Assembly (NCBI GenBank): GCA_016928395.1 | Contig: JAFGKV010000029.1 | Coordinates: forward strand, 1-54,904 | Source: Candidatus Fermentibacterota bacterium | GTDB taxonomy: Bacteria > JAFGKV01 | Reading direction: 5' to 3' | DNA length: 54,904 bases | Part shown: piece after piece, positions 840-15,470 of the stretch | How positions within the stretch are numbered: position 1 is the stretch's first letter | Layout: the number at the start of each line of letters is the position of its first letter | Notes under the pieces: generated by a model | The model's database searches: none | What the model saw: the letters and a program-made list of their open reading frames with translations, nothing else | What the model was told of the DNA's origin: nothing | Program-made: the position numbers and the translations under genes

Positions 840-3146
840 TCATGGCGTAACCGTCTGGGAGCCATGTCCCAGAGCCGCGTTCCCCCGGTCTCGGCAGTGT
901 AGATCTGGAACCGCATGGGGTAGGGCCCATCGGCTGTGGGCGTCGAGGGGTCTGAGGTTCTCCTCCTCCCGGATGGCCTCTTCTCTACTGAAGGATTGCC
1001 TCGCAATCGCCGGAGGTTTCAATGCTTCTCGGCTGAAGTCGAATCCCGTTTGCCCATTCTCCCTGGGCGTAACCGGCGCCGACGCGCGTGCCATGCGGAC
1101 CCGTTCGAATCCACGTCGCTTTGCGACGATCCTGTAGTCAAACATGATCGTGCTCGCTGACCCACTCAGCGCCCGGACCACAAAGGAGTCCGGGTTCTTG
1201 AGGGCCACATAGAGCCCGCAGTCACCTTGAGGCGTCACGAACACCTGGTAGGGCTCGTGCAGGCTTACCGTCTGTGTGAACACCGGATCGATGGCAACGA
1301 CAGCCTCACCATTCACGAGCCGCGCTGAACCGACATCCTCGAAGAGGACATCCGGGCTTTCCACTGTGTAGAGGTGAACCCAACCATGGTCTGCGGTTTC
1401 GACTACCGCCGCCTTGGTGCCCGTTGCCGCGAAGTTGCCGTAGGAATAGACGCCGTAATCGACATTGGTCCCATGTGCCCTTCCATAGACAGCGGTCCCG
1501 ACCGAGGCATTGGTCTCTCCGTAGACGGCATACCCATCCGGCGAATCGACCTCCCCGTAGATGCCGTAGGTCGTTCCCGTGTCTCTTCCCACAAAACCAT
1601 AAACGCCATAGAGCGGATAGGTGCCGCTGGAGTTTCCGGCAATGCCCAACACGCCGCACCCGGCTTGTCCATCGGCACAGCCGTATGCGCCACATTGTCC
1701 ATACGGGGAACTCGTGCTCGAACAATAGCCATAGACGCCGTACGCACTGGCGCTGCCGGAGGAGTTCTCGCCGTAGACCCCGCAGGCCGTATGCGTGGGG
1801 TGATGGGCAAGTCCGTAGACGCCTGCGCCATTGGCGGAGTGGGTTATCCCACGAACCCCATAGCCAGTCCCTGTTGTGCCATGACATGTGCCTTGTACGC
1901 CGATGCCATCTCCGGAATTGGTCTTGAAATAGCCACCATAGTTGACGCCCGAGTACGCATATGCGGAACCGTACACACCGCGTCCGCTTTCGGCGGAACT
2001 CGAGGCGCGGACACCATACGTTGTTCCAGTCGTGGCAGTAGCACTCCCCGAGACGGCTATGCCTTCTGACGATGCCGTCTCTCCCTTGACACCATAGGCC
2101 AAGTTGGTGGTGGCCCATGAACGTCCATACACCCCTATACCAGTACCACTAAAGCTCTCGCCGTAGACGCCGATCGCGTCTCCATGGGTCGCAAGAGCTT
2201 CACCCCATACTCCCCTTCCATTGGATGAGGAAGCCCTCCCCCAGACGCCGCTGGTATACCCTTCCGTCGCGTAGTTGGCGCCGAACAGCCCCCCGCCGTC
2301 AGGGGAGTTATCCTCGAATACCCCTCCGAAATTGACGCCAGCCGTGGCAGCCGAGAGGCCATAGACTGCCATGCCGTTAGTGGATTGAGTCTCGAACCAG
2401 CCGCCGCGCGTGACACCCGTGGCGGCCTCAGCCTTGCCAAACACGCCCGTACCCTGGCTTGACGAACTCACCCCGAACACACCGTAGTTGACGCCGGCAG
2501 TAGAGAATGCCTGGCCGGCCACTCCCATGCCGTCGGTGGCAAGGGTCCTGCCGAAGACGCCGTAGGGAGCTCCGCCCGTGGCGGTGGCGGTGCCGTATAC
2601 ACCGGCGCTCCCCCCTGAGGAAGTCTCACCATGAAGCCCGTGGGCGGTTCCCGCGGCAGCCATGTTCAGCGCACTGAGTACGGCCATCGCGCCTGATGAG
2701 ACCGCGCCACATACTTCCGTGCCAGGCACTATCCCGCTGGCCATGTAGGCGTACCCCACGCTCCCCAGGCGCTGCCTGGGGCTTTGGAGCTCATAGTTGA
2801 AATAGACCTGGAGCCAGTAGTCCTGATTGAAGGCCAGGTTGAGCACCGGCATCGTGCCCGCGCCCAGCATCACACTGAACACGCCCCCGGAGAGCGTCAC
2901 CGTTTGAGGCCCGCTGTCCCAGAGTTGGGTTCCTCCCGTTTCGGCAGTGTAGATCTGGAACCGCATCGGGTAGGATCCGTCGGTGACGGGAGTTCCACCG
3001 CTGTCCGTGACCTTCCCCTGGTAGCTCATGACCTGGGGGATATCGGCGAAAACCGGGGCGGGGAGTATGACCAGAACGATCTGAACGAGCAGAACCAGAG
3101 AAACGGAGAGGTGCCGGTTAGTAGCGGAAGCAGAGCGACTGAGCAT
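840..3146 (-). CDS. Exported Gly-rich (GVYG-repeat) fibre/beta-helix-like protein
   Basis: Signal peptide ending VFA-D; N-domain MSYQGKVTDSGG...MRFQIY..ETGGTQLW; about 400 aa of G(V/I)(Y/F)G repeats; C-domain LYTVESPDVLFEDVGSARL...YQVFVTP...FDYRIVAKR. GAGG RBS precedes ATG 3146. Confidence 0.8.
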   Translation of the reverse strand: MLSRSASATNRHLSVSLVLLVQIVLVILPAPVFADIPQVMSYQGKVTDSGGTPVTDGSYPMRFQIYTAETGGTQLWDSGPQTVTLSGGVFSVMLGAGTMPVLNLAFNQDYWLQVYFNYELQSPRQRLGSVGYAYMASGIVPGTEVCGAVSSGAMAVLSALNMAAAGTAHGLHGETSSGGSAGVYGTATATGGAPYGVFGRTLATDGMGVAGQAFSTAGVNYGVFGVSSSSQGTGVFGKAEAATGVTRGGWFETQSTNGMAVYGLSAATAGVNFGGVFEDNSPDGGGLFGANYATEGYTSGVWGRASSSNGRGVWGEALATHGDAIGVYGESFSGTGIGVYGRSWATTNLAYGVKGETASSEGIAVSGSATATTGTTYGVRASSSAESGRGVYGSAYAYSGVNYGGYFKTNSGDGIGVQGTCHGTTGTGYGVRGITHSANGAGVYGLAHHPTHTACGVYGENSSGSASAYGVYGYCSSTSSPYGQCGAYGCADGQAGCGVLGIAGNSSGTYPLYGVYGFVGRDTGTTYGIYGEVDSPDGYAVYGETNASVGTAVYGRAHGTNVDYGVYSYGNFAATGTKAAVVETADHGWVHLYTVESPDVLFEDVGSARLVNGEAVVAIDPVFTQTVSLHEPYQVFVTPQGDCGLYVALKNPDSFVVRALSGSASTIMFDYRIVAKRRGFERVRMARASAPVTPRENGQTGFDFSREALKPPAIARQSFSREEAIREEENLRPLDAHSRWALPHAVPDLHCRDRGNAALGHGSQTVTP
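845..943 (-). pseudogene. Relic of a paralog of the N-domain of the 840..3146 gene (diverged direct repeat of 2894-2993)
   Basis: About 78/100 nt identical to 2894-2993 by hand alignment, including an exact 26-nt run (891-916 = 2941-2966). There is one 1-nt gap, and most differences are synonymous third positions. Confidence 0.8.
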
Positions 3147-3345: not shown

Positions 3346-5994
3346 CTACAGGTTTAGGTCTTCGATCATATAGAGGAGGTCCCTGCTCTTGTTTACCAGC
3401 ATCAAGACGGTCGAACTCTCAGCTCCCTTGTCGAATGCATCGATGATGAAGGATCGTGCGGTTTCTATGGGACCTCTCAATTGCTGCGGTCCGCCGCCAT
3501 CCAACCCGGTCCGCCAGATACCGGCAAACTCTTCGTACCTGGTAAAGATGAGCGAATCGCCGTCTTGGTCCCAGACGGGGAATGCGCCATCGTGAGTGAG
3601 TCTTCGCAGTTGGGTGCCGTCGGACGAAACAACCCAGATTCCGCTGCTTGCGGTGTCGGCAGGACGTACTTCTCCGCCCCATGCAATGCGCGAACCATCG
3701 GGCGACCAGCGCGGCCCGACTATCCGTGATGCCGTTGCGACGATCGTCTCAACCCCGGTGTTCAGATCACGTACCACAAGCTCAGAATGCGTCTCATCGG
3801 AACGAACGGCAGCGAGTGTCTCACCTCCGGGCGAAAGATCCGGCCAGTCCCAGCGGTCGTCTGATAATGAGGTCACCAACACCGGCAGCCCCCCCTCAAC
3901 CGGGAGCCTCCAGATTCCGGTTTTATCCGCCGCGGTCGATCGGCCCGCCGCCAGCAGGAAAGCCTCGTCTTTCGACCAGCGGACTCGCCACGCGAGAATC
4001 GAACTCACGACCGACTCGGTTCCGCTACCCACATCGATAACACTGATGGTCGGATCACGCGCTTCGCTCCCGATCACAAGTGCGAGACGATCCCCTCGCG
4101 GCGAAAGGGAAGCCGAAAGAATTCTGTCTCTCGTGAGGAATGCCGCCGGGGGCTCTTCGGGTGCCGAAGCGACGTAGACCGTTGTCGCGTCGATGTAGTA
4201 CACGAACGCGACCCGGGTTCCATCCGGTGATACCGACGGCGCCGTGCATGTTCCCGGGCCGCTGGTCAGTTGAACTGCCTTGCCCCGTACTGATGTGGCC
4301 CAGAGCCCGAACACGCTGAACGCGTCGCTGGAATAGACGATCCATTTGGAATCCGGAGTCCATGAGAGACCGTAGAGTTGAGCGCTTTGGTCGGTCAGTT
4401 GTCGGCGATCGGATCCATCGGGGCGCGCTATGAACAGATGGCCATCCCCGCCTTCGGGATTGCTCGTGGTATAGGCAATCCACTCATCGTTGGGGGACCA
4501 GCGAGGCCAGTAACCTACATCCGCTACTTTGACGATCGAGCCCTCTGGATGCCGAACGAGTATCTCTGTTCCGCTATCTGTCACCGACGCGTAGACGAGC
4601 TTGGAGCCATCACGTGAGAAATCTGCGGCGGATGCACCCTCAACGATCTTTTCGACGTTGCCGCCCAGAACGGATACCTGCCAGACATCGGGAGTGATTC
4701 TTGAGGAATCGCCTCGGTAGCTCGTGAAGAGGATGTGGTTACCGTCCGGAGTGAATTCGGGTGTAGGCCCACGAACATCCATGTCAGGAACCAGCGTGAG
4801 CAGTTCCCGTGTCCCAAGCTTGGTCAGATTGAGAGTGTGGCGTCCAGTGGCGCCGTCCGGTGCGATGACTGCAAGCAGATCTCCCGATGGGGCGAAGGAA
4901 GGCTTGATAATCCCATGGGGCAAGCCCGGGATTTCGTGGATTCGACCGGTGATCGGTCGGTCAAAGAGCCGGTAGTCCTTCGTCAAGACGCGCCCGTCAC
5001 CATGTGTCCAAAGCCAGGAGTCCTTACGGACAAGCTGTGAGACAACTACCGCCATCATGGCCAGTGCGGCGGCTCCGATTCCTAATCTCCGTATCACGCG
5101 GAGGCGAACCCAAGGCGGCCCAATCCTGCGCATGGACAGGTCGGGGCCAGGGCCAAGATCCTTGGAGTGAAGTGACGTAGAATCCTGCAGCAAGCACGAG
5201 AGATCTCGTATCATCTGCTCCGCGTCTTGATATCGCAGGGCCGAGGTTCGCTGTACGGCGCGCGCAACAATGGACTCCAGGTCCCGGGGGACTGCGGTGC
5301 AACGTGCAGACACCGCGGGGACATCCTGGTTGAGAATGGCGTGGAGTACCGCACCCGGCGAATCACTCTTGAAGGGGAGCTCTCCCACGACCATCTCGTA
5401 CAGAATCACACCCAGCGACCAGAGGTCTGTCCGGTGATCTACCGCAGTGCCTTCGACCTGTTCCGGCGACATGTAGGCGATCGTACCGAGCTTGGAGCCG
5501 GTGTTGGTCAACCGCGTCTGGTCAACCATCTTGGCGACCCCGAAGTCGAGAATCTTCGCCTCGCCCTGTGCGGTGAGCATGATGTTCGCAGGCTTGACGT
5601 CACGGTGGATGATGCCGGCTCGATGGGCCCGCGCGAGTCCTTTGGCTACCTGCGTCGCGATGCGAACGGCATCGTGGATAACCAGAGGTCCCCGTTCCAT
5701 TCTCTGCTTGAGGGTCTCTCCCTCATAGTAGGCCATGACGATGAAGAGCTGACCCTCATCGGTTTCCCCGATCTCGTGGATGATGCAGATATTGGGATGA
5801 TCCAGGCTCGAGGCGGCCTTGGCCTCACGGATGAAGCGGTCGCGTGTGGGCTCGTCCTCTGCGACGGCAGGAGGTAGGAACTTCAGCGCAACGTAACGGT
5901 CGAGACGCAGGTCCTTCGCCTTGACGACGATGCTCATCCCACCCGCGCCGAGCCGTTCGAGGATTCGATAGTGTGAGACAGTGGTGCCAATCAT
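3346..5994 (-). CDS. Hanks-type Ser/Thr protein kinase with TM helix and C-terminal TolB/PD40-like beta-propeller repeats
   Basis: MIGTTVSHY start, LGAGGM, VALK, HRDVKPAN, DFG and YMSPEQ motifs; hydrophobic LGIGAAALAMMAVVV; repeated P.(W/F)SPDG motifs. Confidence 0.93.
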   Translation of the reverse strand: MIGTTVSHYRILERLGAGGMSIVVKAKDLRLDRYVALKFLPPAVAEDEPTRDRFIREAKAASSLDHPNICIIHEIGETDEGQLFIVMAYYEGETLKQRMERGPLVIHDAVRIATQVAKGLARAHRAGIIHRDVKPANIMLTAQGEAKILDFGVAKMVDQTRLTNTGSKLGTIAYMSPEQVEGTAVDHRTDLWSLGVILYEMVVGELPFKSDSPGAVLHAILNQDVPAVSARCTAVPRDLESIVARAVQRTSALRYQDAEQMIRDLSCLLQDSTSLHSKDLGPGPDLSMRRIGPPWVRLRVIRRLGIGAAALAMMAVVVSQLVRKDSWLWTHGDGRVLTKDYRLFDRPITGRIHEIPGLPHGIIKPSFAPSGDLLAVIAPDGATGRHTLNLTKLGTRELLTLVPDMDVRGPTPEFTPDGNHILFTSYRGDSSRITPDVWQVSVLGGNVEKIVEGASAADFSRDGSKLVYASVTDSGTEILVRHPEGSIVKVADVGYWPRWSPNDEWIAYTTSNPEGGDGHLFIARPDGSDRRQLTDQSAQLYGLSWTPDSKWIVYSSDAFSVFGLWATSVRGKAVQLTSGPGTCTAPSVSPDGTRVAFVYYIDATTVYVASAPEEPPAAFLTRDRILSASLSPRGDRLALVIGSEARDPTISVIDVGSGTESVVSSILAWRVRWSKDEAFLLAAGRSTAADKTGIWRLPVEGGLPVLVTSLSDDRWDWPDLSPGGETLAAVRSDETHSELVVRDLNTGVETIVATASRIVGPRWSPDGSRIAWGGEVRPADTASSGIWVVSSDGTQLRRLTHDGAFPVWDQDGDSLIFTRYEEFAGIWRTGLDGGGPQQLRGPIETARSFIIDAFDKGAESSTVLMLVNKSRDLLYMIEDLNL

Positions 5995-6232
5995 CCCGCA
6001 ACCCTCTTCTCGTGGGCCTGTCACCGCCCATGATACGGAAGCGGAGTCCGGGGATCAATGGTGGGGAGTGGTCGTGAGTGCGGAACACCCAATGTGGAAA
6101 CCCGTTCATGTGGATACGCCAGATGCGTGGCACTCGGGGTTACGGACGCGACAGCCTCCGTGCGCCTCGACCCCTGTAGCCCGTTCGCTCATTGCGGAAT
6201 CAGAGAGTAGCGGGCCATCCGTTGTGTGTGGC

Positions 6233-7294
6233 TCACTGGTCCTCGAAGTACTCGAACGCATCGACGATATCCAGATACGCGCCGTCAAACCCCGCCGCGA
6301 GGATCCTCCCGAGGTATGAGTCGCTGGTCCCATATATGAGCCGCTGCCACTCGGTGTCCCAATAGCGAACCTTGTAGTTGCCGGCCCAGTCAGGGTTCTC
6401 CTCGGTCAACCACGAAGGCGGTGAATGCTCCCACTCGGCGTTCCAGTAATAACGGTAGTCTTCTGCCTCGCCGATGCTCACGTAGGCGATCACGAGGCGG
6501 GAACCTCCGCCCACTTTGACGCCCAGAGACAGAACGTCCTCGGCAGTCAACATGGTATTCTGGTAGAACGCATCGATAAGCAGGACATCATAGTCGGTGG
6601 ACTTGAGCGCACCCAGGTAGGCTTCACGGTCTCGAAACCGCGAGGGATCAAGTAGATAGAGAAAGTTGCGGGATTCCGAGAGCGTCGTGATGTCGGAGGT
6701 GTTGCGCTCGAATGGAACAGCCGGGTAGGTGGGAATGGTATCCAGAGCCCTGTCGGTGGCAAACGAGACGTATCCCCGCTGCGCATTCTGAGAGTAGGAA
6801 TCGTCGACGTAGCGGGGAGTCGTGCAATAGTCGGTAATGAGCACGTCGACGCCAGAGGCCTCCGCCAGGTTGAGAAAGGAGATCATCCAGGATTGCTCCC
6901 CTGCGGGAGTCGGGATATCGTCACCGTGGTAGCCGTAGAAGAGATCTTCACGCCCCAATCCATCGATGGCCGCCACGTAAACGATACTGAGCGGACCATC
7001 GGGTGTTCCGGTATCCGTCAGGAGTTCCTGGCCATTCTGGGGTATAACGATGAATCGTGCGTGCGAGCTCTTGGCCCAGACACTGATCGCTTCGACGAAG
7101 TCGCGCATGTCCTGGCGGTAATCTCGTGGAAGTCCATTGGGATCGATACCATTGCTGCCGCACCCGCCAATGAGGCACGAGAGCACCAGCCACGGAATCG
7201 AAGCCACCTTGAGAAAGACAATCGAGCAAGGCCCGATCCGTCGGATGGATCGGACCGATCGCGCTCCTCTGCAGCTCTCTCCCCTCCGCCTCAT
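6233..7294 (-). CDS. GH114/TM1410-MJ1477-type putative alpha-1,4-polygalactosaminidase lipoprotein (circularly permuted)
   Basis: Motifs IAYVSIGEAEDYRYYW, NYKVRYW, GFDGAYLDIVD, IPQNG and GREDLFYG; lipobox-like LIGGC. The true start may lie downstream of 7294. Confidence 0.85.
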   Translation of the reverse strand: MRRRGESCRGARSVRSIRRIGPCSIVFLKVASIPWLVLSCLIGGCGSNGIDPNGLPRDYRQDMRDFVEAISVWAKSSHARFIVIPQNGQELLTDTGTPDGPLSIVYVAAIDGLGREDLFYGYHGDDIPTPAGEQSWMISFLNLAEASGVDVLITDYCTTPRYVDDSYSQNAQRGYVSFATDRALDTIPTYPAVPFERNTSDITTLSESRNFLYLLDPSRFRDREAYLGALKSTDYDVLLIDAFYQNTMLTAEDVLSLGVKVGGGSRLVIAYVSIGEAEDYRYYWNAEWEHSPPSWLTEENPDWAGNYKVRYWDTEWQRLIYGTSDSYLGRILAAGFDGAYLDIVDAFEYFEDQ

Positions 7295-8979
7295 CGGGCG
7301 ACCACCAGGGGGTGGATTGAGGGAGTGCCCCGAACCCTAAGCCTGCAAAAGTAGAGACCCCCCGGACATCGACGTTCCCAGTCATCGCATCCATCCCACG
7401 ACGTCTGATGCACGCCAGCCTCGAGAGGTCCCCCCACCAGGGATTTCACGCGGCGTCCCAAGAGATCATAGACCCCCAGACTCACTGCTCCTCCTTGAGG
7501 CAGCGAGTAGCAGATGGTGGTCACGTGGGAGAACGGGTTAGGCGAGCTTCCCATAAGGTATGCATGAGGCGATCCCATGGGCTGTGAGGGGCCATGTCCG
7601 TGGGCGCCGAATTGATGCTCGAACGCGCCGATGTCGTATCCCGAGCCCGCGGGCCGTGGATTGCCGTCGTGGTCCACCGGCGGTGCATCCGTTGCAGTTC
7701 CGTTGTCTACGGCCACGCTCGTTTCAAGCACGTGCAGATCGAAGCTCACCGGATCGACGAAGAGGTCTCCCAGCGAGTAGACCACCCGCGAATGTGCATC
7801 TTGACCGCTGTATGCGGCCCAGTCGCCCGCCGCTACCTGGTCCAGACTGAACTCATCCTCGTAGCCGACAATGATGACCCGGTCACCGTCATCATCATGG
7901 AATATGTTGTGATCGCCCTGATAGGTGCGTGCGTCCCGCTGCTCAAATGCGAGACCGATGTTGTCGTTGCCCGCGAGGATGCAGTTGTACATGCGGAGCG
8001 AATCGCTGCTGTTCTCGACCCAGACGTTGTACGTGCCGGCATCCATGAGCGTACAGCTGTGCAGCACCGTCGTGCCCGGATTGCCTCCCCAATCGAGTTC
8101 TATGTTGGAGACCGTATTGTGGTAGGCGAGGCAGTTCACCAGTGTCACCTGATGTCCCCAGAGTTTGAAGCCCCCGTTCCCACACTCATGCGCCGAACAG
8201 CAGTTCAGGAGCACGTTGCTGGCGCCTCCCCCCTCATTCTCGCCGATGTCGAACCCATCGTAGACGCCGTACGTCTCGCAGCGATTGAACACGAAATCGT
8301 GCTGAGTCCCATGGCCAATGGCGAAGCCGTCCACGTTCTGCTGGGGATCGCTGCCGGTATGAGATATGCACTCGTTGAACGTCCCATGATGACATGCTGC
8401 GCCGCCTGAGGGAGACGCATCGAAGCCGTAGAGCATGAAGTGATGCACCACGATACGGTTCATCTCGAAATCATGGGCGCCATGGGCCAGCCCAATGCCG
8501 CACCATACGTCATGGACAATGCAATCAGAGATTTCCAGATAGGCCGCTCCCTCCACCCAGACACCGTTGTCATTCCAGTTGCGGATCTCGAGACCGTTCA
8601 GAGTAATGTAGCTCTTGTCCACCACGATGCAGTTCTGCGATTCCTCCACGCCTATGCCGTCGATGATGGGCGTCTCCCCGGGATAGGCTGAGAAGACGAT
8701 CGACCCCTCCATGTCATTCCCATCGTGCTCGGTGTGGACGTGCTCAGTGTAGATGCCGGCCCGGATCAGGACGGTATCACCGGCCACCATGGTCTCCGAT
8801 GCGTGTTGAATAGTGCGCCATGGCAAACCGACCGTACCGGGATTCTCGTCACTGGCTGATGGATGATTGATGTCAACGCAGTATGTGGTGGCGTGTCCGG
8901 CGCCGGCGAACACAAGCGTCACGACGCACGCAAGGCGTGCTACCCTCGACGCCATCAGGGGTGAAGCGGTCGCATTCAC
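7291..8979 (-). CDS. Secreted right-handed beta-helix protein with choice-of-anchor-Q-like segment and C-terminal FlgD-Ig-type domain
   Basis: Signal peptide (GHA-T); SDENPGT..PWRTIQHA and AGDTVLIRAGIY; D.DGNPRP.G..YDIGAFE; C-terminal PNPF...TTI.YSL...VYDLLGRRV...WDG.D...GLYFCRL. Confidence 0.85.
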   Translation of the reverse strand: MNATASPLMASRVARLACVVTLVFAGAGHATTYCVDINHPSASDENPGTVGLPWRTIQHASETMVAGDTVLIRAGIYTEHVHTEHDGNDMEGSIVFSAYPGETPIIDGIGVEESQNCIVVDKSYITLNGLEIRNWNDNGVWVEGAAYLEISDCIVHDVWCGIGLAHGAHDFEMNRIVVHHFMLYGFDASPSGGAACHHGTFNECISHTGSDPQQNVDGFAIGHGTQHDFVFNRCETYGVYDGFDIGENEGGGASNVLLNCCSAHECGNGGFKLWGHQVTLVNCLAYHNTVSNIELDWGGNPGTTVLHSCTLMDAGTYNVWVENSSDSLRMYNCILAGNDNIGLAFEQRDARTYQGDHNIFHDDDGDRVIIVGYEDEFSLDQVAAGDWAAYSGQDAHSRVVYSLGDLFVDPVSFDLHVLETSVAVDNGTATDAPPVDHDGNPRPAGSGYDIGAFEHQFGAHGHGPSQPMGSPHAYLMGSSPNPFSHVTTICYSLPQGGAVSLGVYDLLGRRVKSLVGGPLEAGVHQTSWDGCDDWERRCPGGLYFCRLRVRGTPSIHPLVVAR

Positions 8980-9101
8980 TGTCGGTCTCCTTTCTGTCGC
9001 GAATCATGTCGTGGGGACTATCGATGCCTTCATCGGGGGATCTGCCGGGATACTCGCTCTCAGGGGGGCAAATCTCGCCCGAGACCCGCCGGTGGAGGAA
9101 G

Positions 9102-10931
9102 CTACTCGCAGCACGTCTCGACGAGGTCTGCGGTCCAGAGAAACTGGCGGAGGAATGCCCGCAGGACTTCCTGTCTAGTCGTACCCATGTGCTCTGAGAG
9201 CAGGTCGACGCTGGCGCTTCGTGACTGGAGCACCGCATAGAAGAGATGCTCGGGCCCCAGGAAGGTAACGCCGCAATCCTCTGCGGCTATCCTCGCGTCC
9301 TCCAGGCAGCGGCGGTAGTTCACGGTGGGAACCGGGATGGGCTGGAATGCGGTATCAGGCACGTCTCGCGAAGACGGAAGATCAGCGGGGCTGGCCCCCA
9401 CCTTCCGCAGGACTGCCTGGACGTGCTCCAGGTCTTCATCGACCAGTGCAGCCAGGAGATGTCCCGTCTCAAGCCGTTCGGCCCGCTCTGCGCGAGCCCG
9501 TCGTTCAGCACTTCTGATGACCCTCAGAGCCTCCGGATCCAGCGGCATATGCAGGGGAGTGACCGTCTGCCGAGCAGCGGCAATGTCAAGAGCGAAGACA
9601 AAAGCGTCCCGAGAGATGGGTGTTGATGAACCGACGAGCGCTTCCTCGAAGGTCAGCTTTCTCCCGCTGCTCGTCGCGTATCGATCGGTCAAGCCTGTTG
9701 GTTCGAGGAGCATGATCCCGCTCCGGGCCAGCTCGCGGTTCAATCGATCAACGTCGCTGATGACCGGCTCCACACGGGGGCTGACCGTGGTCCAGCATCC
9801 GACAACCGCGTGATACCAGCGGTGATCTCCGCGCAGCACAACCACCACCGGCTGCACATTCACATGTTCGAGTACCGAGGCGAGGAACAGCGCAAGATCG
9901 ATGCACGTACCCTCCCCCTGTCTGCCGCGCTGACCCGCCATGACCCGATGAGGAGGGCGAATCGTCTGGCTCCCGCTCTCGGATCCGGGGTCGGGCGGAA
10001 CATACTTGATGTCATACCGATCCCTCAGCGTCGTGTAGAGGGCTTTGAGTATCTCACGAATCCCGTGCCCGTTGAGGATCCGGAAACCCTGACAGGATGC
10101 CGACGCAAGCTCATGCATCTGTAGGGAGCCCATGGCCTCTGCGGCCACCGACGTCACCGAGGGATGGGCGGGTTGTACAAAACAGGCCAGACTCTTTCGG
10201 TACGCGGTATGAAGCGGCCACTCGTGAAAGCCGAGAATGTCGATTCCCTGCACAAGCGCAACTTCGTCGTCAAGGGCGACCTCCACCGTGGCCCGTCGCC
10301 GCCCCACCTGGCCTTCCAGTTGTTCATAGCGGAGACGGAGGGGTACTTCACCGAATTCTCGTGTGGATTTCCCCGGGATCTCTTCGCATGCCAGCTGGCA
10401 CGGATAGCTATAGCCGGGTATCGTGATCGTGATACGAAGGGGACCACGTACATCGGGGGAGAGGTTTTCGAGCCTAAGAGCGGTGATGACCGGGATACTG
10501 CAGTGATGCAGGCTGTAGGTAAGGGTCGGAATCATCCGCAGTCTGATGCCCATTTCATGCCACGTGGCACAGTGGACGTCAGACGGCGATATGACCCAGG
10601 TGGTCTCTCCCATCTGCACGGTGACCCCCGGCAGGATGGTGGTCGGATGCGAAATGCCCTGAATCTCGCGTCCATCGACGCGAGTGCCGCCCTTGCTCCC
10701 GGTATCTTCGACAAACCACGCGCCCCCCGTGAAGCCAAATCGTGCATGGCGGCGGCTTACCGAGGTGTCAGGAAAGAGATCGAGATCAGGGCGCCACTCA
10801 CCAGAATGCTCCCGACGCCCTATCGTGTATGAGCGGGAAGGATCGAGCGGGTATTCGCGGACTGCCGCGGGCCCGTGGAGGATGTGGAGGGTCCATCCCT
10901 GTGAACCGGCCAACGTATCCGATGAGGTCAT
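9102..10931 (-). CDS. FHA domain + transglutaminase/papain-like Cys-His domain + C-terminal Clp-N double repeat protein
   Basis: FHA: YTIGR...VSRRHA...EDTGSKGGT. Central GTCIDLALFLASVLE...HAVVGCW...LLEPT. C-terminal A+R+I+SAE..A..E...ETGHLLAAL and ...A...A...G..FLGPEHLFYAVL match Clp-N repeats. ATGA overlap with the upstream gene. Confidence 0.8.
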   Translation of the reverse strand: MTSSDTLAGSQGWTLHILHGPAAVREYPLDPSRSYTIGRREHSGEWRPDLDLFPDTSVSRRHARFGFTGGAWFVEDTGSKGGTRVDGREIQGISHPTTILPGVTVQMGETTWVISPSDVHCATWHEMGIRLRMIPTLTYSLHHCSIPVITALRLENLSPDVRGPLRITITIPGYSYPCQLACEEIPGKSTREFGEVPLRLRYEQLEGQVGRRRATVEVALDDEVALVQGIDILGFHEWPLHTAYRKSLACFVQPAHPSVTSVAAEAMGSLQMHELASASCQGFRILNGHGIREILKALYTTLRDRYDIKYVPPDPGSESGSQTIRPPHRVMAGQRGRQGEGTCIDLALFLASVLEHVNVQPVVVVLRGDHRWYHAVVGCWTTVSPRVEPVISDVDRLNRELARSGIMLLEPTGLTDRYATSSGRKLTFEEALVGSSTPISRDAFVFALDIAAARQTVTPLHMPLDPEALRVIRSAERRARAERAERLETGHLLAALVDEDLEHVQAVLRKVGASPADLPSSRDVPDTAFQPIPVPTVNYRRCLEDARIAAEDCGVTFLGPEHLFYAVLQSRSASVDLLSEHMGTTRQEVLRAFLRQFLWTADLVETCCE

Positions 10932-11629
10932 GCGGGGTTGTCCGGAGTCTTTTCTATCAACAACAGGAAGTCTCCCGACGGGATCTCCTCAAACTCTGTA
11001 AGAACGAACGCCTCACCTTCGACGGCCCGAAACGGAGCCACGTGCGCCCAGGAGCCATCTCTGGCCACCAACGCAACCAAGGGCCGGGGAACCGTAGGGA
11101 CGTCAGACTGCACGAGTGCTCTTCTTTGAGTAGGATCGAAGGTGACCTTGGTCCACTGTGGCGTCGGTGCCACAAACGCGGCCCACGGCTGGCCTCCCCC
11201 TGATCCTGCAATCGAGAACGGCACGGGGACCGGTTCGAATCGGGGAAAGCTCATGCCGTGTAAGAACTCCAAACCCTCTTGAGCGACACTCACCGCGTGT
11301 GTCGATGCATCGAGAAAAACGGAGAGGGCTGTGCCGACGCTCTCGGTGATGTGCGCCGCCCACTGTGCCAGCCGTTCGCGCAAATCAGGGGAGGCCGGGG
11401 CTCTGCTCAGCGCATAGCGAAGGCGTGCAACCTGGAACTCCTCGGCATGCGTTGTGACCGTCCAGGTTTCCCAAATCTGATCGAAGTTGCCCCGTACCGA
11501 CAGAAGAGCCTTCACACGCTCGGCACAGTGCTGGCAGGTAGCCAGGTGGATCTCCACGTCAAGGCATGTGTCATGATCCAGCTCATCGACGGCATAGGCA
11601 CGCAACTGGTCAGAGTTTAGGTGATCCAT
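10928..11629 (-). CDS. Soluble zinc-binding (zf-HC2/ZAS) anti-sigma-like protein
   Basis: N-terminal H-L...L.AY..DELD...VE.HLATCQHC (HxxxCxxC). It starts 2 nt after the sigma stop and has no TM segment. Confidence 0.85.
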   Translation of the reverse strand: MDHLNSDQLRAYAVDELDHDTCLDVEIHLATCQHCAERVKALLSVRGNFDQIWETWTVTTHAEEFQVARLRYALSRAPASPDLRERLAQWAAHITESVGTALSVFLDASTHAVSVAQEGLEFLHGMSFPRFEPVPVPFSIAGSGGGQPWAAFVAPTPQWTKVTFDPTQRRALVQSDVPTVPRPLVALVARDGSWAHVAPFRAVEGEAFVLTEFEEIPSGDFLLLIEKTPDNPA

Positions 11630-11631
11630 CT

Positions 11632-12468
11632 TCAGTTTCCTCGCTGACGTGGGCGCGATTGCCCGTGTGTCTCAATGTTCGTCGCAGCGATGAGTTTTCT
11701 CGTACAGGTTCTTACCCGGTCACACCAATCGCTTATGTTTGCTGCCGGATCACCCCCGAAAAAGACCTTCAGCGCAAGGCTTCCGACCGCCAGCTCGGAA
11801 CTCATACCCCGATCATCGTATTCGCGCTCGCCATACACCTCAACTGCGGGGGAATCCATGACAGCCAGGAGCGGAGCGCAAAATGTGCTGTGGAAGGTTC
11901 TCTGTGACATGTAGTGCTCGAGAGGTGCGTAATAGGACTCGAGAAACTCATCCGTCAGGCTCATGAGGGACGACTCGGCCCGCTCCTTGACTATCTCCCG
12001 AGGCCGCCATTGGAGAAGCTTCACAAAGCCGAACATGAGAATCTGATGCGGTTTGGCGCCGCAGACGAACACGAGCCTCAGCAGTTCAAGCCGCTCTAAC
12101 GGCTCATGGAAGGAGCGAGTCTCAGCCGCGAGACTCCGAATCCGGTGGCTCTGTTCGGATAGGCGGCTATCCGCTCTCGCACGATGCCGCCAATAGTCCT
12201 GTACCACATGAAGCGCCACATTCCGCAGGAGCGTGTAGAGACGGTATTGCCGGTCAAACAGCCCTTGGTCCAGGCTTCGACGTGCCCGGATGAAGCACTC
12301 CTGCGCAAGATCCTCTGCGTCTTCGGTAACCCCTATCCGCCCGGCGATGAACCCCCGAACGGGCAGGAGAAAGGCGTTGTAGAGAATCCCCCACGCCTCA
12401 GGATCGCCGGCGATAGCCGCCTCGACCAGCGCCAGTTCTTCACTCTCGGCAAGGAATCGTCTCTCCAT
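11632..12468 (-). CDS. ECF-type RNA polymerase sigma factor with atypical region 4
   Basis: Region 2: AGDPEAW..LY, EDAEDLAQECFIRA, L..VA....DYWR. Region 4 is split into PHQILMF....QWRPREIV and PAANISDWCDRVR. Start placed at ATG 12468 (AGGTGA RBS). Confidence 0.85.
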   Translation of the reverse strand: MERRFLAESEELALVEAAIAGDPEAWGILYNAFLLPVRGFIAGRIGVTEDAEDLAQECFIRARRSLDQGLFDRQYRLYTLLRNVALHVVQDYWRHRARADSRLSEQSHRIRSLAAETRSFHEPLERLELLRLVFVCGAKPHQILMFGFVKLLQWRPREIVKERAESSLMSLTDEFLESYYAPLEHYMSQRTFHSTFCAPLLAVMDSPAVEVYGEREYDDRGMSSELAVGSLALKVFFGGDPAANISDWCDRVRTCTRKLIAATNIETHGQSRPRQRGN

Positions 12469-13166
12469 GCTCTTCACCTGCCTCGGTGCCCCTCTGTGTC
12501 GGATCCTCACTGCGCGATCGTGCCCATCGCCCGGCAATGACTGTTCCAGGTTCTCGAGCAACCGGCATAGACCCCATCTGCTTACTCCGCCATGGCTGCG
12601 CGCCGAGCGCACACAAGAACAAGGGTGGGCTCCTCGAGCCATGACGTGCAATGATCATCTCAAACTACCTCCTCTTGGATGGAACCACACTGAAAAACGT
12701 CCACGACTCGGCACCATCGAGTGGCACCTCTACCGCACAGCACGACCACGTCTCGTAGATCCCCGAGAGTAGAGTGTTTGCCGTCCCCGCGCTCTGTGAG
12801 AACCGAGTGGTCGCGTATCATGCGGGTTTCTTGCCCTCGGCCGGTCTCCGTATGGGGGAATGAGGAGGTCGGCATCTCTCTCCTGTTTTCCTCCCTAGGG
12901 AAACCATGCGGGGATCCAGAGTCCCATCGACCGCGCCGGGCCGTGACCCGTGGCGACATGACCACAAGAATGTGCCACGTGGCCTTGGACGGCCGGGCAG
13001 TAACATGAGGCTCTCGAATGTCCCCCGAACCGGTGGCCAGCATGACCTGAGCGGCCTCCTGGAGAACTTCACAGGCAGTCACCCTCCTTCAATCGCCGTC
13101 ACTTGCGCGAACCCCGCTTTGCAGTTTTCTACCTCGCGGACGGATTGGCCTGACAAAGGAGATGTG

Positions 13167-15470
13167 ATGGCACATCAACAGAGAGAGTCTGGATGGCATG
13201 TTGTGCTGACACGAGGCCGGAGTGCGCTCAAGTTCTCGGCTCTGGTCTGTATGACCCTGGCATGCACCCGCCCAACTTTGGGCGTTCTCAGTCTTCTTGA
13301 TCAAATACCGGAGGAGGAGCCAGCGGGTCCCTGGACCGCCGTGGCATTCGTCAGGGAGCGGGGCGGTCCTCTCGCTGAAGAGCCGGCTGTGCTTCCATCG
13401 AATCTCAGTGCGCACAGAATTCGTCTGACGTCTCGCGAGGGTCTTCATCTTCCATCGGGCGGAATGATTCTCGCCCGCACCGCCTATCAGCGCCGATGGG
13501 GAGAAGGGCAGGTAGCGGAGTTGGCGGTGCGTCGAGGGGACTCTATCGTGGCAACAAGGGAAGCACCCTTGGGACCAAGCTGGCAGGAGTTCCGTCTTCA
13601 CATTCCACGGGATGGCGCCGACGCGCTGGAACTTCGGTGCAGTGTGCCGCCGGGCACTGAAGTTCCACCCTTCAGTCTTGTCGCCGTGGCCATGGAGCCC
13701 AGCGCTTCTCCGGCTGAGGTGCGCCGTGCCTCGTCACTTCTGGCCTGGGCTGCTCGTCAGTCCATATACATGACGCCCACACTTCTGAAGTGGAAGCGGT
13801 TTCATCTCGCCCTCGAAGCCGGAAGCTCGGAGATCGTCACCATGGCTGGCGGCGACACCCTCGCTTTCGACATCCCGACGCCCTTTTGCGGGGGCACTCT
13901 TAAGTTCGCGGCGATCGAACTGAAGATGGAGACGGGAACGGAGGCAGTTCTCCATCTCGAGGTACACAATCGCGACCGGTGGGAGCGCATGGCAGACTGG
14001 GCAATGGAGGATCGGCGACGAGAGGTATCACAGCGTCAGAGCTTCGACCTTCCGGTGATTGGCGACAAGATCCGCTTCACACTGACAGGCAAGGATGAGC
14101 TCATCGGTCTCGCCACGCCGATGGTCCTGCCGCGGCATGCCTCGGGCGCGGGCAAGAACCTTGTTGTGATCGTGCTGGATACGATGCGTGCCGATCGGCT
14201 GGGTTTCTATGGATACGAGACACGCCCTACTTCCCAGGCCCTTGACTCGCTTCTGGATGCCAGGGGCTTCTCGATCTTCCACGCCGCATCCTCCGGAGGG
14301 CCGAACACCCTATCGGCAACCCCGAAGTTCCTCGCCTCTCGATACTTGAACATCCATGAACCAGAGAGCGTCCCGCGCGGCAATCTGATGCTGGCGGAGA
14401 TGCTCAGGAGCCATGGCTACTACTGCGCTGCATTCACCGGTGGCGGGGTACTCCAGTGCCCGGGATTCGATCAGGGCTTTCACGAGTTTCACACGGCGCG
14501 CGGCCCGGGCAAAGTCGAGGAAGTATTCCCTCCCGCGCGAGTGTGGCTGGAGACCAACCCCACTCGCCCGTTCTTCCTGTTTGTCCACACCTATGAACCC
14601 CATACACCCTATACCCGCGACCTCTTCTGCCGGCATCTTCCCCATGGCGGATTGGGCGATATCTCCAAAGGAGAGCTACTCATGGATGGAACCGCTGGGG
14701 CGCGGGATGTCGTGGGTGACATCATGGAGCTGTCTTTTGAGGAAAGCCTGTATGTCGAAGCGGCATACGACGGCGGAGTGAGAGTCGCCACCGACGCTGC
14801 TGTCGAGCTGCTGACATTGCTGGACCGCCTCGGCCTCTGGGAGAACACGGTTGTCGTCATCCTGAGCGATCACGGGGAAGAATTCTGGGAGCATACCGGG
14901 TCGTATGCGCATCACTCCTCGTGGTCTGTCTACAATGAACTGCTGCACGTACCGTTCGCGTTGCGGGAGGCCGGCTCCGATGGGGGTAAGGCCCGCCACA
15001 TCCATCAGAACGTGAGTACCGTCGATCTAATGCCTACAGTCGTGGAGCTGTTGAGACTCCCGTCCGTACATCCCATGGATGGGGCCAGTCTCGCTCCCGC
15101 GCTGAGAGGCACGCCGGTGAAGAGAGCCATACCGATACTGGCAACCAGCAGTCCTCGCGGCGCAAGCCCGCGGGTATGCGTGATCAAGGATCGGATGAAG
15201 TACTGCGCACCGGACAGCGCGGGCCGCGGCCCCGAGCTGTATGATCTTCAGGCCGATCCTCGCGAGCTTCGCGACCTCGTACAGAAGGATTCGGCACGGA
15301 CACGGGAGATGGAGTTGCTGCTTCAGGCCGGAATACGGGCCGCTGCCAAACCGATGGCCTCTGAACCGGCCGGTGCATATGAACTCCCGGATGGGTTGAG
15401 GGCCCAGCTCGAGCTTCTCGGGTATCTCATTCCTGAGGAGCGCCGCGAAGGTCGAGACCGGGGAAGGTGA
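13167..15470 (+). CDS. Exported sulfatase/alkaline-phosphatase-superfamily protein with long N-terminal extension
   Basis: Motifs KNLVVIVLDTMRAD, FLFVHTYEPHTPY, SDHGEEFWEH, LHVPF, VSTVDLMPT, ELYDLQADPRE and QLELLGY. AAAGGAG RBS before GTG/ATG 13164/13167. Confidence 0.88.
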   Translation: MAHQQRESGWHVVLTRGRSALKFSALVCMTLACTRPTLGVLSLLDQIPEEEPAGPWTAVAFVRERGGPLAEEPAVLPSNLSAHRIRLTSREGLHLPSGGMILARTAYQRRWGEGQVAELAVRRGDSIVATREAPLGPSWQEFRLHIPRDGADALELRCSVPPGTEVPPFSLVAVAMEPSASPAEVRRASSLLAWAARQSIYMTPTLLKWKRFHLALEAGSSEIVTMAGGDTLAFDIPTPFCGGTLKFAAIELKMETGTEAVLHLEVHNRDRWERMADWAMEDRRREVSQRQSFDLPVIGDKIRFTLTGKDELIGLATPMVLPRHASGAGKNLVVIVLDTMRADRLGFYGYETRPTSQALDSLLDARGFSIFHAASSGGPNTLSATPKFLASRYLNIHEPESVPRGNLMLAEMLRSHGYYCAAFTGGGVLQCPGFDQGFHEFHTARGPGKVEEVFPPARVWLETNPTRPFFLFVHTYEPHTPYTRDLFCRHLPHGGLGDISKGELLMDGTAGARDVVGDIMELSFEESLYVEAAYDGGVRVATDAAVELLTLLDRLGLWENTVVVILSDHGEEFWEHTGSYAHHSSWSVYNELLHVPFALREAGSDGGKARHIHQNVSTVDLMPTVVELLRLPSVHPMDGASLAPALRGTPVKRAIPILATSSPRGASPRVCVIKDRMKYCAPDSAGRGPELYDLQADPRELRDLVQKDSARTREMELLLQAGIRAAAKPMASEPAGAYELPDGLRAQLELLGYLIPEERREGRDRGR

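Follow-up and report, generated by a model that had tools for sequence, protein, structure and literature searches.

Three mechanisms are reported, in the passages of a review of non-canonical extracytoplasmic function (ECF) sigma factors that deal with the subject (PMC8999054), for ECFs under the control of soluble anti-sigma factors: a change of conformation or redox state, partner switching, and a complex that senses mechanical stress. Other ECF groups are linked to kinases, and these typically lack anti-sigma factors (Casas-Pastor 2021, main text). A precedent in which kinase, anti-sigma factor and proteolysis come together is RseA of Mycobacterium tuberculosis, which, according to parts of PMC11173970, is degraded by ClpC1P2 once PknB has phosphorylated it. 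In antiphage defence, the Prometheus protein ProA is described in parts of PMC13700489 as a single-protein system with an architecture of DUF4011, a DNA2-type helicase, a nuclease and DUF3320. Here we describe a three-gene locus of a Candidatus Fermentibacterota bacterium that may be compared with each of these. It lies in a stretch of 54,904 nucleotides, called the window below, that comprises positions 1-54,904 of contig JAFGKV010000029.1 of the GenBank assembly GCA_016928395.1. The locus encodes a putative sigma factor of the ECF type, a soluble zinc-binding anti-sigma (ZAS) protein and a third protein (gene 3) in which FHA, transglutaminase-like and Clp_N domains are joined. An initial annotation, made from the letters of the window alone, had drawn attention to it.

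The three-gene unit and its kinase neighbours

All three genes are on the minus strand. The sigma gene (11632-12468, 278 aa, ATG at 12468) is followed by the ZAS gene (10928-11629, 233 aa), and their junction consists of the TGA stop, the letters AG and the ATG of ZAS, that is, a gap of 2 nt. The stop of ZAS and the start of gene 3 (9102-10931, 609 aa) overlap as ATGA. Sequences resembling ribosome-binding sites, AGGA-like and AGGTGA-like, are found 5′ of the ZAS and sigma starts. The three open reading frames (ORFs), the gap and the overlap are thus all present in the sequence as the initial annotation had given them. A longer sigma ORF with a TTG start, extending to 12651, was considered and is unsupported: four homologs are 278-279 aa long and cover 95-100% of the query.

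Loci of the gene 3 family were gathered in genome and metagenome collections, in the genome of the window and in two others. All their ORFs were scored with a set of profiles, one each for sigma, ZAS, FHA part, central domain, Clp_N and kinase (the last made from ten Pfam-confirmed kinase domains). A ZAS-family gene lies upstream on the same strand in 19 of the 25 distinct loci. A sigma-family gene is present in 15, and in 16 if L028 is included, where only the C-terminal end of a sigma is left at the contig edge. In L038, L043 and L046 the ZAS is present and the contig ends there, while in L073 and L039 the upstream DNA is too short to judge the presence of sigma or ZAS. The control consisted of 72 loci in which the same central module occurs in other proteins, mostly of 1,400-2,500 aa; these come from the last genome scan (80 loci), of which 8 FHA-type loci were set aside. 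Neither sigma (0/72) nor ZAS (0/72) was found in them. Moreover, the overlap of the ZAS stop with the gene 3 start recurs in six loci (L038, L042, L044, L041, L027 and L048). In the window the ZAS gene adjoins the sigma gene, and in L041 and L027/L072 the two are fused as one protein. The initial annotation had allowed that homologs of the three genes might never be co-located; they clearly are, and the comparison of neighbourhoods supports the view that the three genes form a conserved functional unit.

A Hanks-type Ser/Thr kinase is encoded in 16 of the 25 family loci, compared with 4 of the 72 control loci, and L039 adds the cut TPR end of one. These neighbouring kinases carry TPR, TPR-S, STAND NTPase or WD40 parts. 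Fusions also exist. Among the best 150 representatives of the family we find Pkinase-FHA-X-ClpN (P0119), Pkinase-TPR-FHA-X-ClpN (P0136) and X-ClpN-Pkinase-TPR-S (P0099, P0104), where X is the central module. In the window, the probable partner is a receptor-type Hanks Ser/Thr kinase of 892 aa (3346-6024, minus strand), encoded 3 kb downstream of gene 3 on the same strand. It has a kinase domain at residues 19-258 (Pfam Pkinase, E 6.2e-49), one membrane helix at about 310-333 (hydrophobic peak 2.13 at residue 314) and a predicted extracytoplasmic PD40 beta-propeller (E 5.4e-25). The genome of the window encodes 7 kinases above the Pfam cut-off, and two of them stand beside its two copies of the module. 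As a rough estimate, with 7 kinases in 4.79 Mb, the chance of a kinase lying within 6 kb of a given point is about 2%.

The second copy in this genome (L037, at G000:C186:1928-9326) encodes a sigma, a ZAS, a gene 3 that lacks FHA, an ORF of 137 aa with no family match and a 1,079-aa Pkinase-STAND-TPR protein. Its gene 3 is 41% identical to that of the window over residues 131-606. In the window's phylum, of which three genomes were examined, the presence of the module is uneven: a genome of the same genus has an FHA-less copy only, and a genome of the same family (G002, 98% complete) has none. This suggests that the module is accessory and patchy. According to record titles, family loci occur in Eisenbacteria, Chloroflexota, Gemmatimonadota, Omnitrophota, Desulfobacterota, Verrucomicrobiota and others. 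Many of the bacteria in which sigma, ZAS and gene 3 stand together near protein kinases are uncultured.

An exhaustive profile search of 1.84 billion representatives gave 4,919 proteins with an E-value of 0.001 or lower, of which 1,149 have one of 1e-30 or lower. This overturned the impression, left by a word-based search with 26 members, that the gene 3 family is very rare. In the genome scans a single-protein query gave FHA look-alikes only, and an alignment query found three true loci. The best 150 representatives are divided into FHA-X-ClpN (92), X-ClpN (36), FHA-X (13) and X alone (9), several of the last two kinds being truncated. ClpC-like double AAA+ genes are found inside the cassette in L027 and L047; with 2 of 25 loci, such a neighbour was dropped as a constant member.

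Some individual loci show further variation. One Chloroflexota contig (L064 and L076) encodes a sigma with a 280-aa N-terminal extension, a ZAS, an LRR protein, two small ORFs, a Pkinase-WD40 protein and FHA-X-ClpN, and a second, cut copy of gene 3 is found at the end of the same contig (L030). The whole cassette is present in L049 (3127-9663), where the coding sequences of ZAS, gene 3 and kinase are scattered over several frames, which may reflect a decaying copy or a poor assembly. In L042 (4761-5654), a calcineurin-like metallophosphoesterase follows gene 3 at the place where other loci have the kinase, and it may be a phosphoprotein phosphatase partner.

Domains and folds of the three proteins

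The AlphaFold2 model of gene 3, based on an alignment of 23 relatives, has a mean predicted local distance difference test score (pLDDT) of 83.1 and a predicted template modelling score (pTM) of 0.68. From the N-terminus it shows the FHA sandwich (residues 13-135) and another beta-sandwich (147-239), followed by a layer of helices (242-305), the alpha/beta core (307-453) and the helical Clp_N part (466-602). The FHA domain (10527-10895, minus strand; residues 13-135) is identified by Pfam, by structural match and by conservation. Pfam places it at residues 35-108 with 45.3 bits (cut-off 20.7, E 1.2e-11), and in a comparison with 48,161 solved chains it matches GarA (6i2q_B; VIA-align Z 15.5, root-mean-square deviation (rmsd) 1.9, 97 aligned). 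In an alignment of 32 sequences, its phosphate-binding residues G38, R39, S59, S79 and T83 each reach a conservation of 90% or more. An FHA domain is recognised by its fold and by phospho-Thr-binding residues of the Gly-Arg and Ser-x-x-His type, and with this fold and with G38, R39 and S59 conserved the protein fits that description. At the other end, the Clp_N domain (9126-9536, minus strand; residues 466-602) is a complete double repeat with no AAA+ ATPase attached. Pfam recognises residues 475-519 (28 bits, cut-off 20.7), and the part from 461 to 602 matches the N-domain of Hsp104 (5u2l_A; Z 16.0, 134 aligned) and ClpC (3pxg_A; Z 15.4), as is characteristic of the double-repeat N-domain of Clp/Hsp100 ATPases.

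When the whole 609-aa model was used in fold searches, only the FHA and Clp_N parts gave matches, and the central domain was therefore modelled alone (pLDDT 87.9, pTM 0.87). It occupies 9537-10526 on the minus strand (residues 136-465) and consists of an Ig-like sandwich, corresponding to residues 1-100 of the separately modelled piece, and a transglutaminase-like, papain-fold domain. The top Foldseek matches are the transglutaminases factor XIII, TG2 and TG3 (E 5e-4, 85-94 columns). In VIA-align, the domain matches the putative protease BDI_1141 (3kd4_B; Z 9.6, rmsd 3.4, 139 aligned), and further TglA (Z 8.9), the pseudomurein endoisopeptidases PeiW and PeiP, PNGase and LapG (Z 7.8). Down to Z 7.0, the matches over residues 100-325 of the piece belong to the transglutaminase-like superfamily (transglutaminases, peptidases, PNGase, XPC) or are unclassified flagellar axoneme proteins. 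In the AlphaFold2 model, Cys343 (codon 9903-9905) starts a helix (343-356) and His374 (codon 9810-9812) lies in a strand (373-380). Both are invariant in 74 representatives that average 27% column identity. All 23 sequences of a smaller alignment have Glu or Asp at residue 410, and Asp449 is more than 90% conserved in both the 23- and the 32-sequence alignment. A Cys at the start of a helix, followed by a His and an acidic residue on the following strands, is the arrangement of the transglutaminase-like/papain-fold superfamily, and as modelled the centre of gene 3 is a transglutaminase-like Cys-His-acid enzyme fold. At the level of sequence, Pfam Transglut_core (PF01841) has no match in gene 3 (E up to 1) or in the isolated domain (E up to 0.1); its sole match, a weak one (E 0.053), is in a ProA-like relative (L051). 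With the whole-family profile, no transglutaminase is among the best 60 matches listed from the PDB sequences.

The same central part is related to ProA. The NCBIfam model of ProA (NF058533) matches residues 139-486 of gene 3 with its positions 2-338 of 1,903 (E 6.6e-41); the score of 139.8 bits compares with a cut-off of 1500, so that gene 3 falls short of a full-length ProA. In proteins of about 1,970 aa, the N-terminus (residues 54-370 in L051) aligns with the full length of a central-domain profile, and the GxGTCiDLA and HA motifs are retained. Beyond it, Pfam recognises DUF4011, helicase parts (AAA_11/AAA_12) and an MTES_1575 nuclease in these large relatives, with DUF3320 in addition in L052 and P0222. 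This is the architecture given for Prometheus in PMC13700489. Pfam finds no DUF4011 or helicase domain in gene 3, and PADLOC-DB v2.0.0 gives 0 families for each of the three proteins (E up to 1). Judged by sequence, gene 3 is not a ProA, and the N-terminal enzyme module of ProA is common to both. Since a validated antiphage protein and gene 3 have this module in common, its chemistry may be studied in a small three-gene system.

The module is also found in other settings. An 824-aa protein (L050, 4660-7134) combines a weak match to the caspase-like CHAT domain (E 3.6e-4) with a C-terminal transglutaminase-like module, and in L053 and L055 the module stands behind N-terminal regions of about 360-450 residues without a family match. 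In the scan that gave L072-L151, ProA-like giants are common in metagenome-assembled genomes of Planctomycetota, and they are also present in Arthrobacter echini, Oscillospiraceae and Myxococcota. One is found on a contig labelled Escherichia coli (L136).

In the sigma protein, the only Pfam match is Sigma70_r2 (PF04542; residues 29-98, 29.5 bits, cut-off 24). The sigma-2 domain of ECF (group 4) sigma factors is recognised by Pfam, by hhalign and by a profile search of PDB sequences. In the last, the family profile matched only sigma-2 of ECF sigmas (best 6dxo, E 4e-15), and in hhalign the family was aligned to 14 ordinary ECFs with a probability of 99.4% in columns 6-98 only. Sigma-4 was not detected by any of the sequence methods (Pfam, NCBIfam, the PDB-sequence profile search, hhalign). 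It is also absent from the precomputed Pfam lists of all 9 members of the sigma family, a small one, obtained by word-based search, in which PF04542 alone is annotated. The NCBIfam sigma70-ECF superfamily model scores 22.5 bits, below its cut-off of 42.9. Following sigma-2, there is a domain of about 150 aa that is conserved in the family, with the pattern LLRLVFxCxAKPHQ...WRPRE and then SDWCxKVRxRTR. By sequence it is not recognisable as sigma-4, and it may be a very diverged one. Look-alikes of this half in the ESM Atlas gave no usable feature match: the structural neighbours all have a TM-score below 0.45, and the pLDDT of the Atlas model is 0.52. Region 2.2 retains a DAED-type motif (EDAEDLAQE) in the family alignment. 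On this ground the sigma should bind core RNA polymerase in the unphosphorylated state, unlike ECF43 as characterised in passages of PMC8999054. There is no membrane helix (highest 19-residue Kyte-Doolittle mean 1.19).

Two Terriglobales loci, L067 (6735-9090) and L068 (5191-8738), encode members of the same sigma family, with sigma-2 and the novel C-terminal domain, followed by a short ZAS-like ORF only and no gene 3. In L068, a gene with a caspase domain is immediately upstream of the sigma ORF, and an astacin gene is slightly further upstream.

In the ZAS protein, zf-HC2 (residues 8-36) scores 20.1 bits, slightly below the cut-off of 22.2, and homologs exceed it (27.4, 24.1 and 32.1 bits). 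The zinc motif H28-x3-C32-x2-C35, the HxxxCxxC by which the N-terminal anti-sigma domain of the ZAS family is known, is invariant at H28, C32 and C35 in 9 of 9 aligned sequences. It is present in 16 of the 17 of a wider set, the remaining one (L129) having Ser in place of His. The C-terminal domain is beta-rich and conserved, with no family match in Pfam or NCBIfam. The highest 19-residue Kyte-Doolittle mean is 1.24, so there is no membrane helix. Of 13 ZAS proteins paired with an FHA-bearing gene 3, 10 have a W-T motif whose threonine is Thr57 in the window, compared with 0 of 4 paired with an FHA-less one; the sample is small and its sequences are related. Thr57 is a candidate phospho-acceptor.

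The initial annotation had described the products as an atypical ECF sigma, a zf-HC2 protein without a transmembrane helix, and a protein joining FHA, a Cys/His core and Clp-N. The first description is borne out by the sigma-2 domain standing without a detectable sigma-4, and the second agrees with a soluble ZAS that has the HxxxCxxC motif. The third holds as well, and Pfam, the models and the fold searches now give the Cys/His core the identity of a transglutaminase-like fold.

The proposed switch, rival explanations and surroundings

Taken together, these observations lead us to read the module as a sigma/anti-sigma switch that is controlled by a Ser/Thr kinase and has a third component of its own. 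We give this reading a probability of roughly 45%; its biochemistry, including all steps of binding, phosphorylation and cleavage, we infer. In the resting state, the soluble ZAS would hold the sigma inactive. On a signal, an activated Hanks-type kinase would phosphorylate a threonine, for which Thr57 of the ZAS or a site on the kinase itself are candidates. The FHA domain of gene 3 would then dock on the phospho-threonine and bring the Cys343/His374 centre and Clp_N to the anti-sigma, which would be cut or covalently modified and possibly passed to a ClpC-type unfoldase. The freed sigma would transcribe its targets. The initial annotation had offered a related interpretation, of which the conserved unit, the atypical sigma, the soluble ZAS and the domains of gene 3 have stood. 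Its notion of an entirely cytoplasmic switch has not. The transmembrane receptor kinase of the window, with its PD40 propeller and on the same strand, and the tie to sensor-bearing kinases across the family, through neighbours and fusions, make that notion doubtful, and the switch is probably not confined to the cytoplasm.

Complex prediction on pairs of the proteins had also been suggested. For ZAS with gene 3, the median score is 0.44 (runs 0.00, 0.60 and 0.44) and the best of three controls is 0.00; the contact agreement of the runs is at least 0% and the partner pLDDT at least 69. Of 80 solved complexes, 58 reached the mark used, as did 2 of 110 mismatched pairs, and scores of 0.60 or less were those of only 7 of the 80 solved complexes and of both mismatches that passed. 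A median above the controls is weakly in favour of an interaction, and the inconsistency of the runs speaks against it.

Several further observations weigh against the kinase-controlled switch. The three complex runs disagree among themselves. The FHA domains of the family do not keep the canonical Asn of the NG turn, and the window protein has Gly at residue 82. FHA itself is absent in 36 of the 150 best relatives, about a quarter, so reading of phospho-Thr is not obligatory in the family. The sigma function of the first protein, including contact of its C-terminal domain with DNA and core polymerase, is something that we infer from its sequence. The sigma/ZAS pair exists without gene 3 in the Terriglobales loci L067 and L068. 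Conversely, L031, L079, L040 and L045, each with at least 4.8 kb of upstream DNA, have neither sigma nor ZAS, which means that gene 3 and the kinase can exist without a sigma output. Finally, two unrelated-looking genes separate the kinase from gene 3 in the window. They encode a right-handed beta-helix protein with a FlgD_ig-like end (7291-8979, minus strand) and a GH114-like hydrolase (6233-7294, minus strand), both identified by Pfam, and they overlap by 4 nt.

The fold and the invariant residues of gene 3 also bear on whether it acts as an enzyme at all. It may be an adaptor only, whose FHA domain binds phosphorylated ZAS and whose Clp_N docks on, or replaces, the N-domain of a ClpC/ClpB-type unfoldase that then removes the ZAS, with no chemistry done by gene 3. 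The Clp_N fold is complete (Z 16.0), and the removal of RseA through PknB and ClpC1P2 (PMC11173970, in part) is a mycobacterial precedent. The ClpC-like AAA+ genes inside the cassettes of L027 and L047 point the same way: the N-terminal 200 aa of the L027 ATPase have no Clp_N match, and that of L047 has a weak one (17.4 bits, below the cut-off). However, these are the only 2 of 25 loci with a Clp ATPase gene nearby, and the invariance of C343 and H374 in 74 diverged sequences would be hard to explain if catalysis were dispensable. We regard the adaptor as quite unlikely. A redox switch is very unlikely. In that case the ZAS alone would be a thiol/zinc sensor like RsrA or RshA, gene 3 would have a separate job such as kinase regulation or cross-linking, and the gene order would mean co-expression only. 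The conservation of the ZAS-gene 3 start/stop overlap across phyla, the 0/72 of the control and the co-variation of the extra conserved C-terminal domain of ZAS with the family all argue against so loose an association. It is consistent with the intact HxxxCxxC motif, with soluble ZAS proteins known as redox sensors (PMC8999054, in part) and with members of the gene 3 family that exist without sigma and ZAS.

The relation to ProA raises another alternative, that of a conflict or defence cassette. The kinase and the FHA-transglutaminase-ClpN protein would sense a threat, the module sensing or attacking an invader protein as it perhaps does in ProA, and the sigma/ZAS pair would be a mere output. 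The whole-length homology of the central module to ProA-like N-termini and to the C-terminus of the CHAT-domain protein in L050 fits this, and the STAND, TPR-S, WD40 and LRR parts of the partner kinases are typical of conflict systems. The distribution is patchy both across phyla and in the window's own family, where G002 has no copy; the sigma family adjoins a caspase-domain gene in L068, and ECF sigmas coupled to caspase systems are published (PMC8195603, in part). Yet none of the three proteins has a PADLOC match, the score of 139.8 bits is far from the ProA cut-off of 1500, the cassette has no nuclease, TIR, pore-forming or other killing domain, and the neighbours in the window are carbohydrate-active enzymes and a sulfatase and not defence genes. 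A defence role is therefore unlikely in our view. The kinase-controlled switch may also be generalised. In this form, which we consider doubtful, the kinase with the [FHA]-transglutaminase-like-Clp_N protein would be a widespread undescribed device in which phospho-Thr licenses a thiol peptidase or transamidase to destroy a soluble anti-sigma. The freed sigma would read promoters by a new C-terminal domain, and the module would be a regulated trigger domain that also heads ProA. If true, the device would be a cytoplasmic counterpart of regulated intramembrane proteolysis, and its enzyme module a trigger domain common to transcriptional signalling and antiphage defence.

As for the surroundings of the cassette, the beta-helix and GH114 genes were dropped as members of it, none being found beside the module in other loci; they may be targets of the sigma, context, or unrelated polysaccharide enzymes. 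Directly downstream of the kinase, a 768-aa ORF (840-3146, minus strand) begins with a hydrophobic segment at its N-terminus and matches no family in Pfam (E up to 0.001). On the other side, a divergently oriented gene (12906-15470, plus strand) encodes an 854-aa sulfatase whose first 400 residues or so have no Pfam match. It has a 437-nt intergenic region in common with the sigma gene.

A scan of 8700-13000 found no sigma-70-like promoter. Five terminator-like sites were found in it, compared with 2.5 expected. Four are within or at the ends of coding sequence, one is in the intergenic region upstream of the sigma gene and none is between the three genes; they are treated as chance matches. 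In a metatranscriptomic library, one 176-nt contig is identical to 10710-10885, inside gene 3. A second RNA run gave only one 33-base, partly fitting piece of a contig, in the kinase gene, and the rest of the operon is uncovered by the RNA runs. Because RNA libraries can carry DNA, such matches show neither the presence nor the absence of transcription, and the 176-nt match is at most a hint of expression. The whole stretch is present in one sediment-metagenome run, which may be its source, and in a sediment run of a second study it is found at 95-99% likeness in short contigs.

Comparison with known systems

Full-text literature searches for ECF or sigma together with FHA, transglutaminase and Clp returned no description of the three-gene architecture, which agrees with the initial annotation in regarding it as undescribed; these searches concern the architecture and not the assignment to a numbered ECF group. 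FHA and transglutaminase have 0 occurrences in the main text of the ECF reclassification (Casas-Pastor 2021), the per-group contexts being in its supplements. FHA does not occur in the consulted portion of the review of non-canonical ECFs (PMC8999054), and the word sigma is absent from the main text of a 2020 paper on conflict systems (PMC7159879). Within the described systems compared here, as distinct from numbered ECF groups, the module looks like an undescribed variant of kinase-linked sigma/anti-sigma switching.

Among sigma systems, SigE-RseA and SigH-RshA of M. tuberculosis show the same general design: a soluble ZAS holds an ECF sigma, the Hanks kinase PknB phosphorylates a threonine of the anti-sigma, and Clp-dependent removal by ClpC1P2 frees the sigma (PMC11173970 and PMC8999054, both in part). 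The present module differs from SigE-RseA in its operon-encoded FHA-transglutaminase-like-Clp_N protein, none being described for RseA. Moreover, its sigma has no recognisable sigma-4, its ZAS has an extra C-terminal domain and the kinase stands beside the module in most loci. The ECF43 type (EcfP/PknT and EcfK/PknS) is similar in the genetic linkage between a sigma of the ECF family and a Hanks Ser/Thr kinase (Casas-Pastor 2021; parts of PMC8999054 and PMC13147305). However, ECF43 sigmas are described in PMC8999054, as far as its relevant passages go, as having no anti-sigma and no DAED and as being phosphorylated themselves. Here the DAED motif (EDAEDLAQE) is present, a ZAS gene is adjacent and a third protein is added, so the sigma does not have the marks of ECF43. 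In having an N-terminal ZAS and a C-terminal accessory domain, the ZAS protein resembles the ChrR type, and the ChrR family is its best NCBIfam match. In contrast, the score (25.7 bits) is far below the cut-off of 124.5, and the C-terminal domain is not recognised as a cupin and has no family match.

On the side of the enzyme, gene 3 has the fold and the Cys-His-acid order of transglutaminase-like peptidases such as LapG/BTLCP, BDI_1141, PeiW/PeiP and TglA (Z 9.6 to 7.8). It differs from them in being cytoplasmic by prediction and flanked by FHA and Clp_N, in having some 20 residues inserted between its His and its acidic residue, and in having no Transglut_core match. Residues 139-486 of gene 3 are homologous to the N-terminal 340 residues or so of ProA, where an Ig-like sandwich is joined to a transglutaminase-like domain that bears the motifs GxGTCxDLA and HA. 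The DUF4011, helicase, nuclease and DUF3320 parts of ProA are absent from gene 3, and the control loci, including the ProA-like ones, are without sigma or ZAS. As a mode of signalling, sensor Ser/Thr kinases that act through an FHA output protein with variable effectors are known from the Esr pathway of Actinomycetales (PMC13622651, in part) and from the MoxR-vWA ternary conflict systems (PMC7159879, in part). Here no MoxR or vWA genes were seen, and the output is a sigma/anti-sigma pair.

The domain family is large and no curiosity: it counts 4,919 representative clusters (E no higher than 0.001), and FHA-X-ClpN is the form of 92 of the 150 best relatives. In a sigma family that keeps sigma-2 and has no recognisable sigma-4, recognition of the -35 element becomes a question of its own. 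If the proposed switch is true, Hanks kinases and ECF sigmas, two main bacterial signalling systems, would be linked in one cassette. Compared with the three mechanisms reported for ECFs with soluble anti-sigma factors, kinase-gated enzymatic inactivation by an operon-encoded protein would then be a possible fourth.

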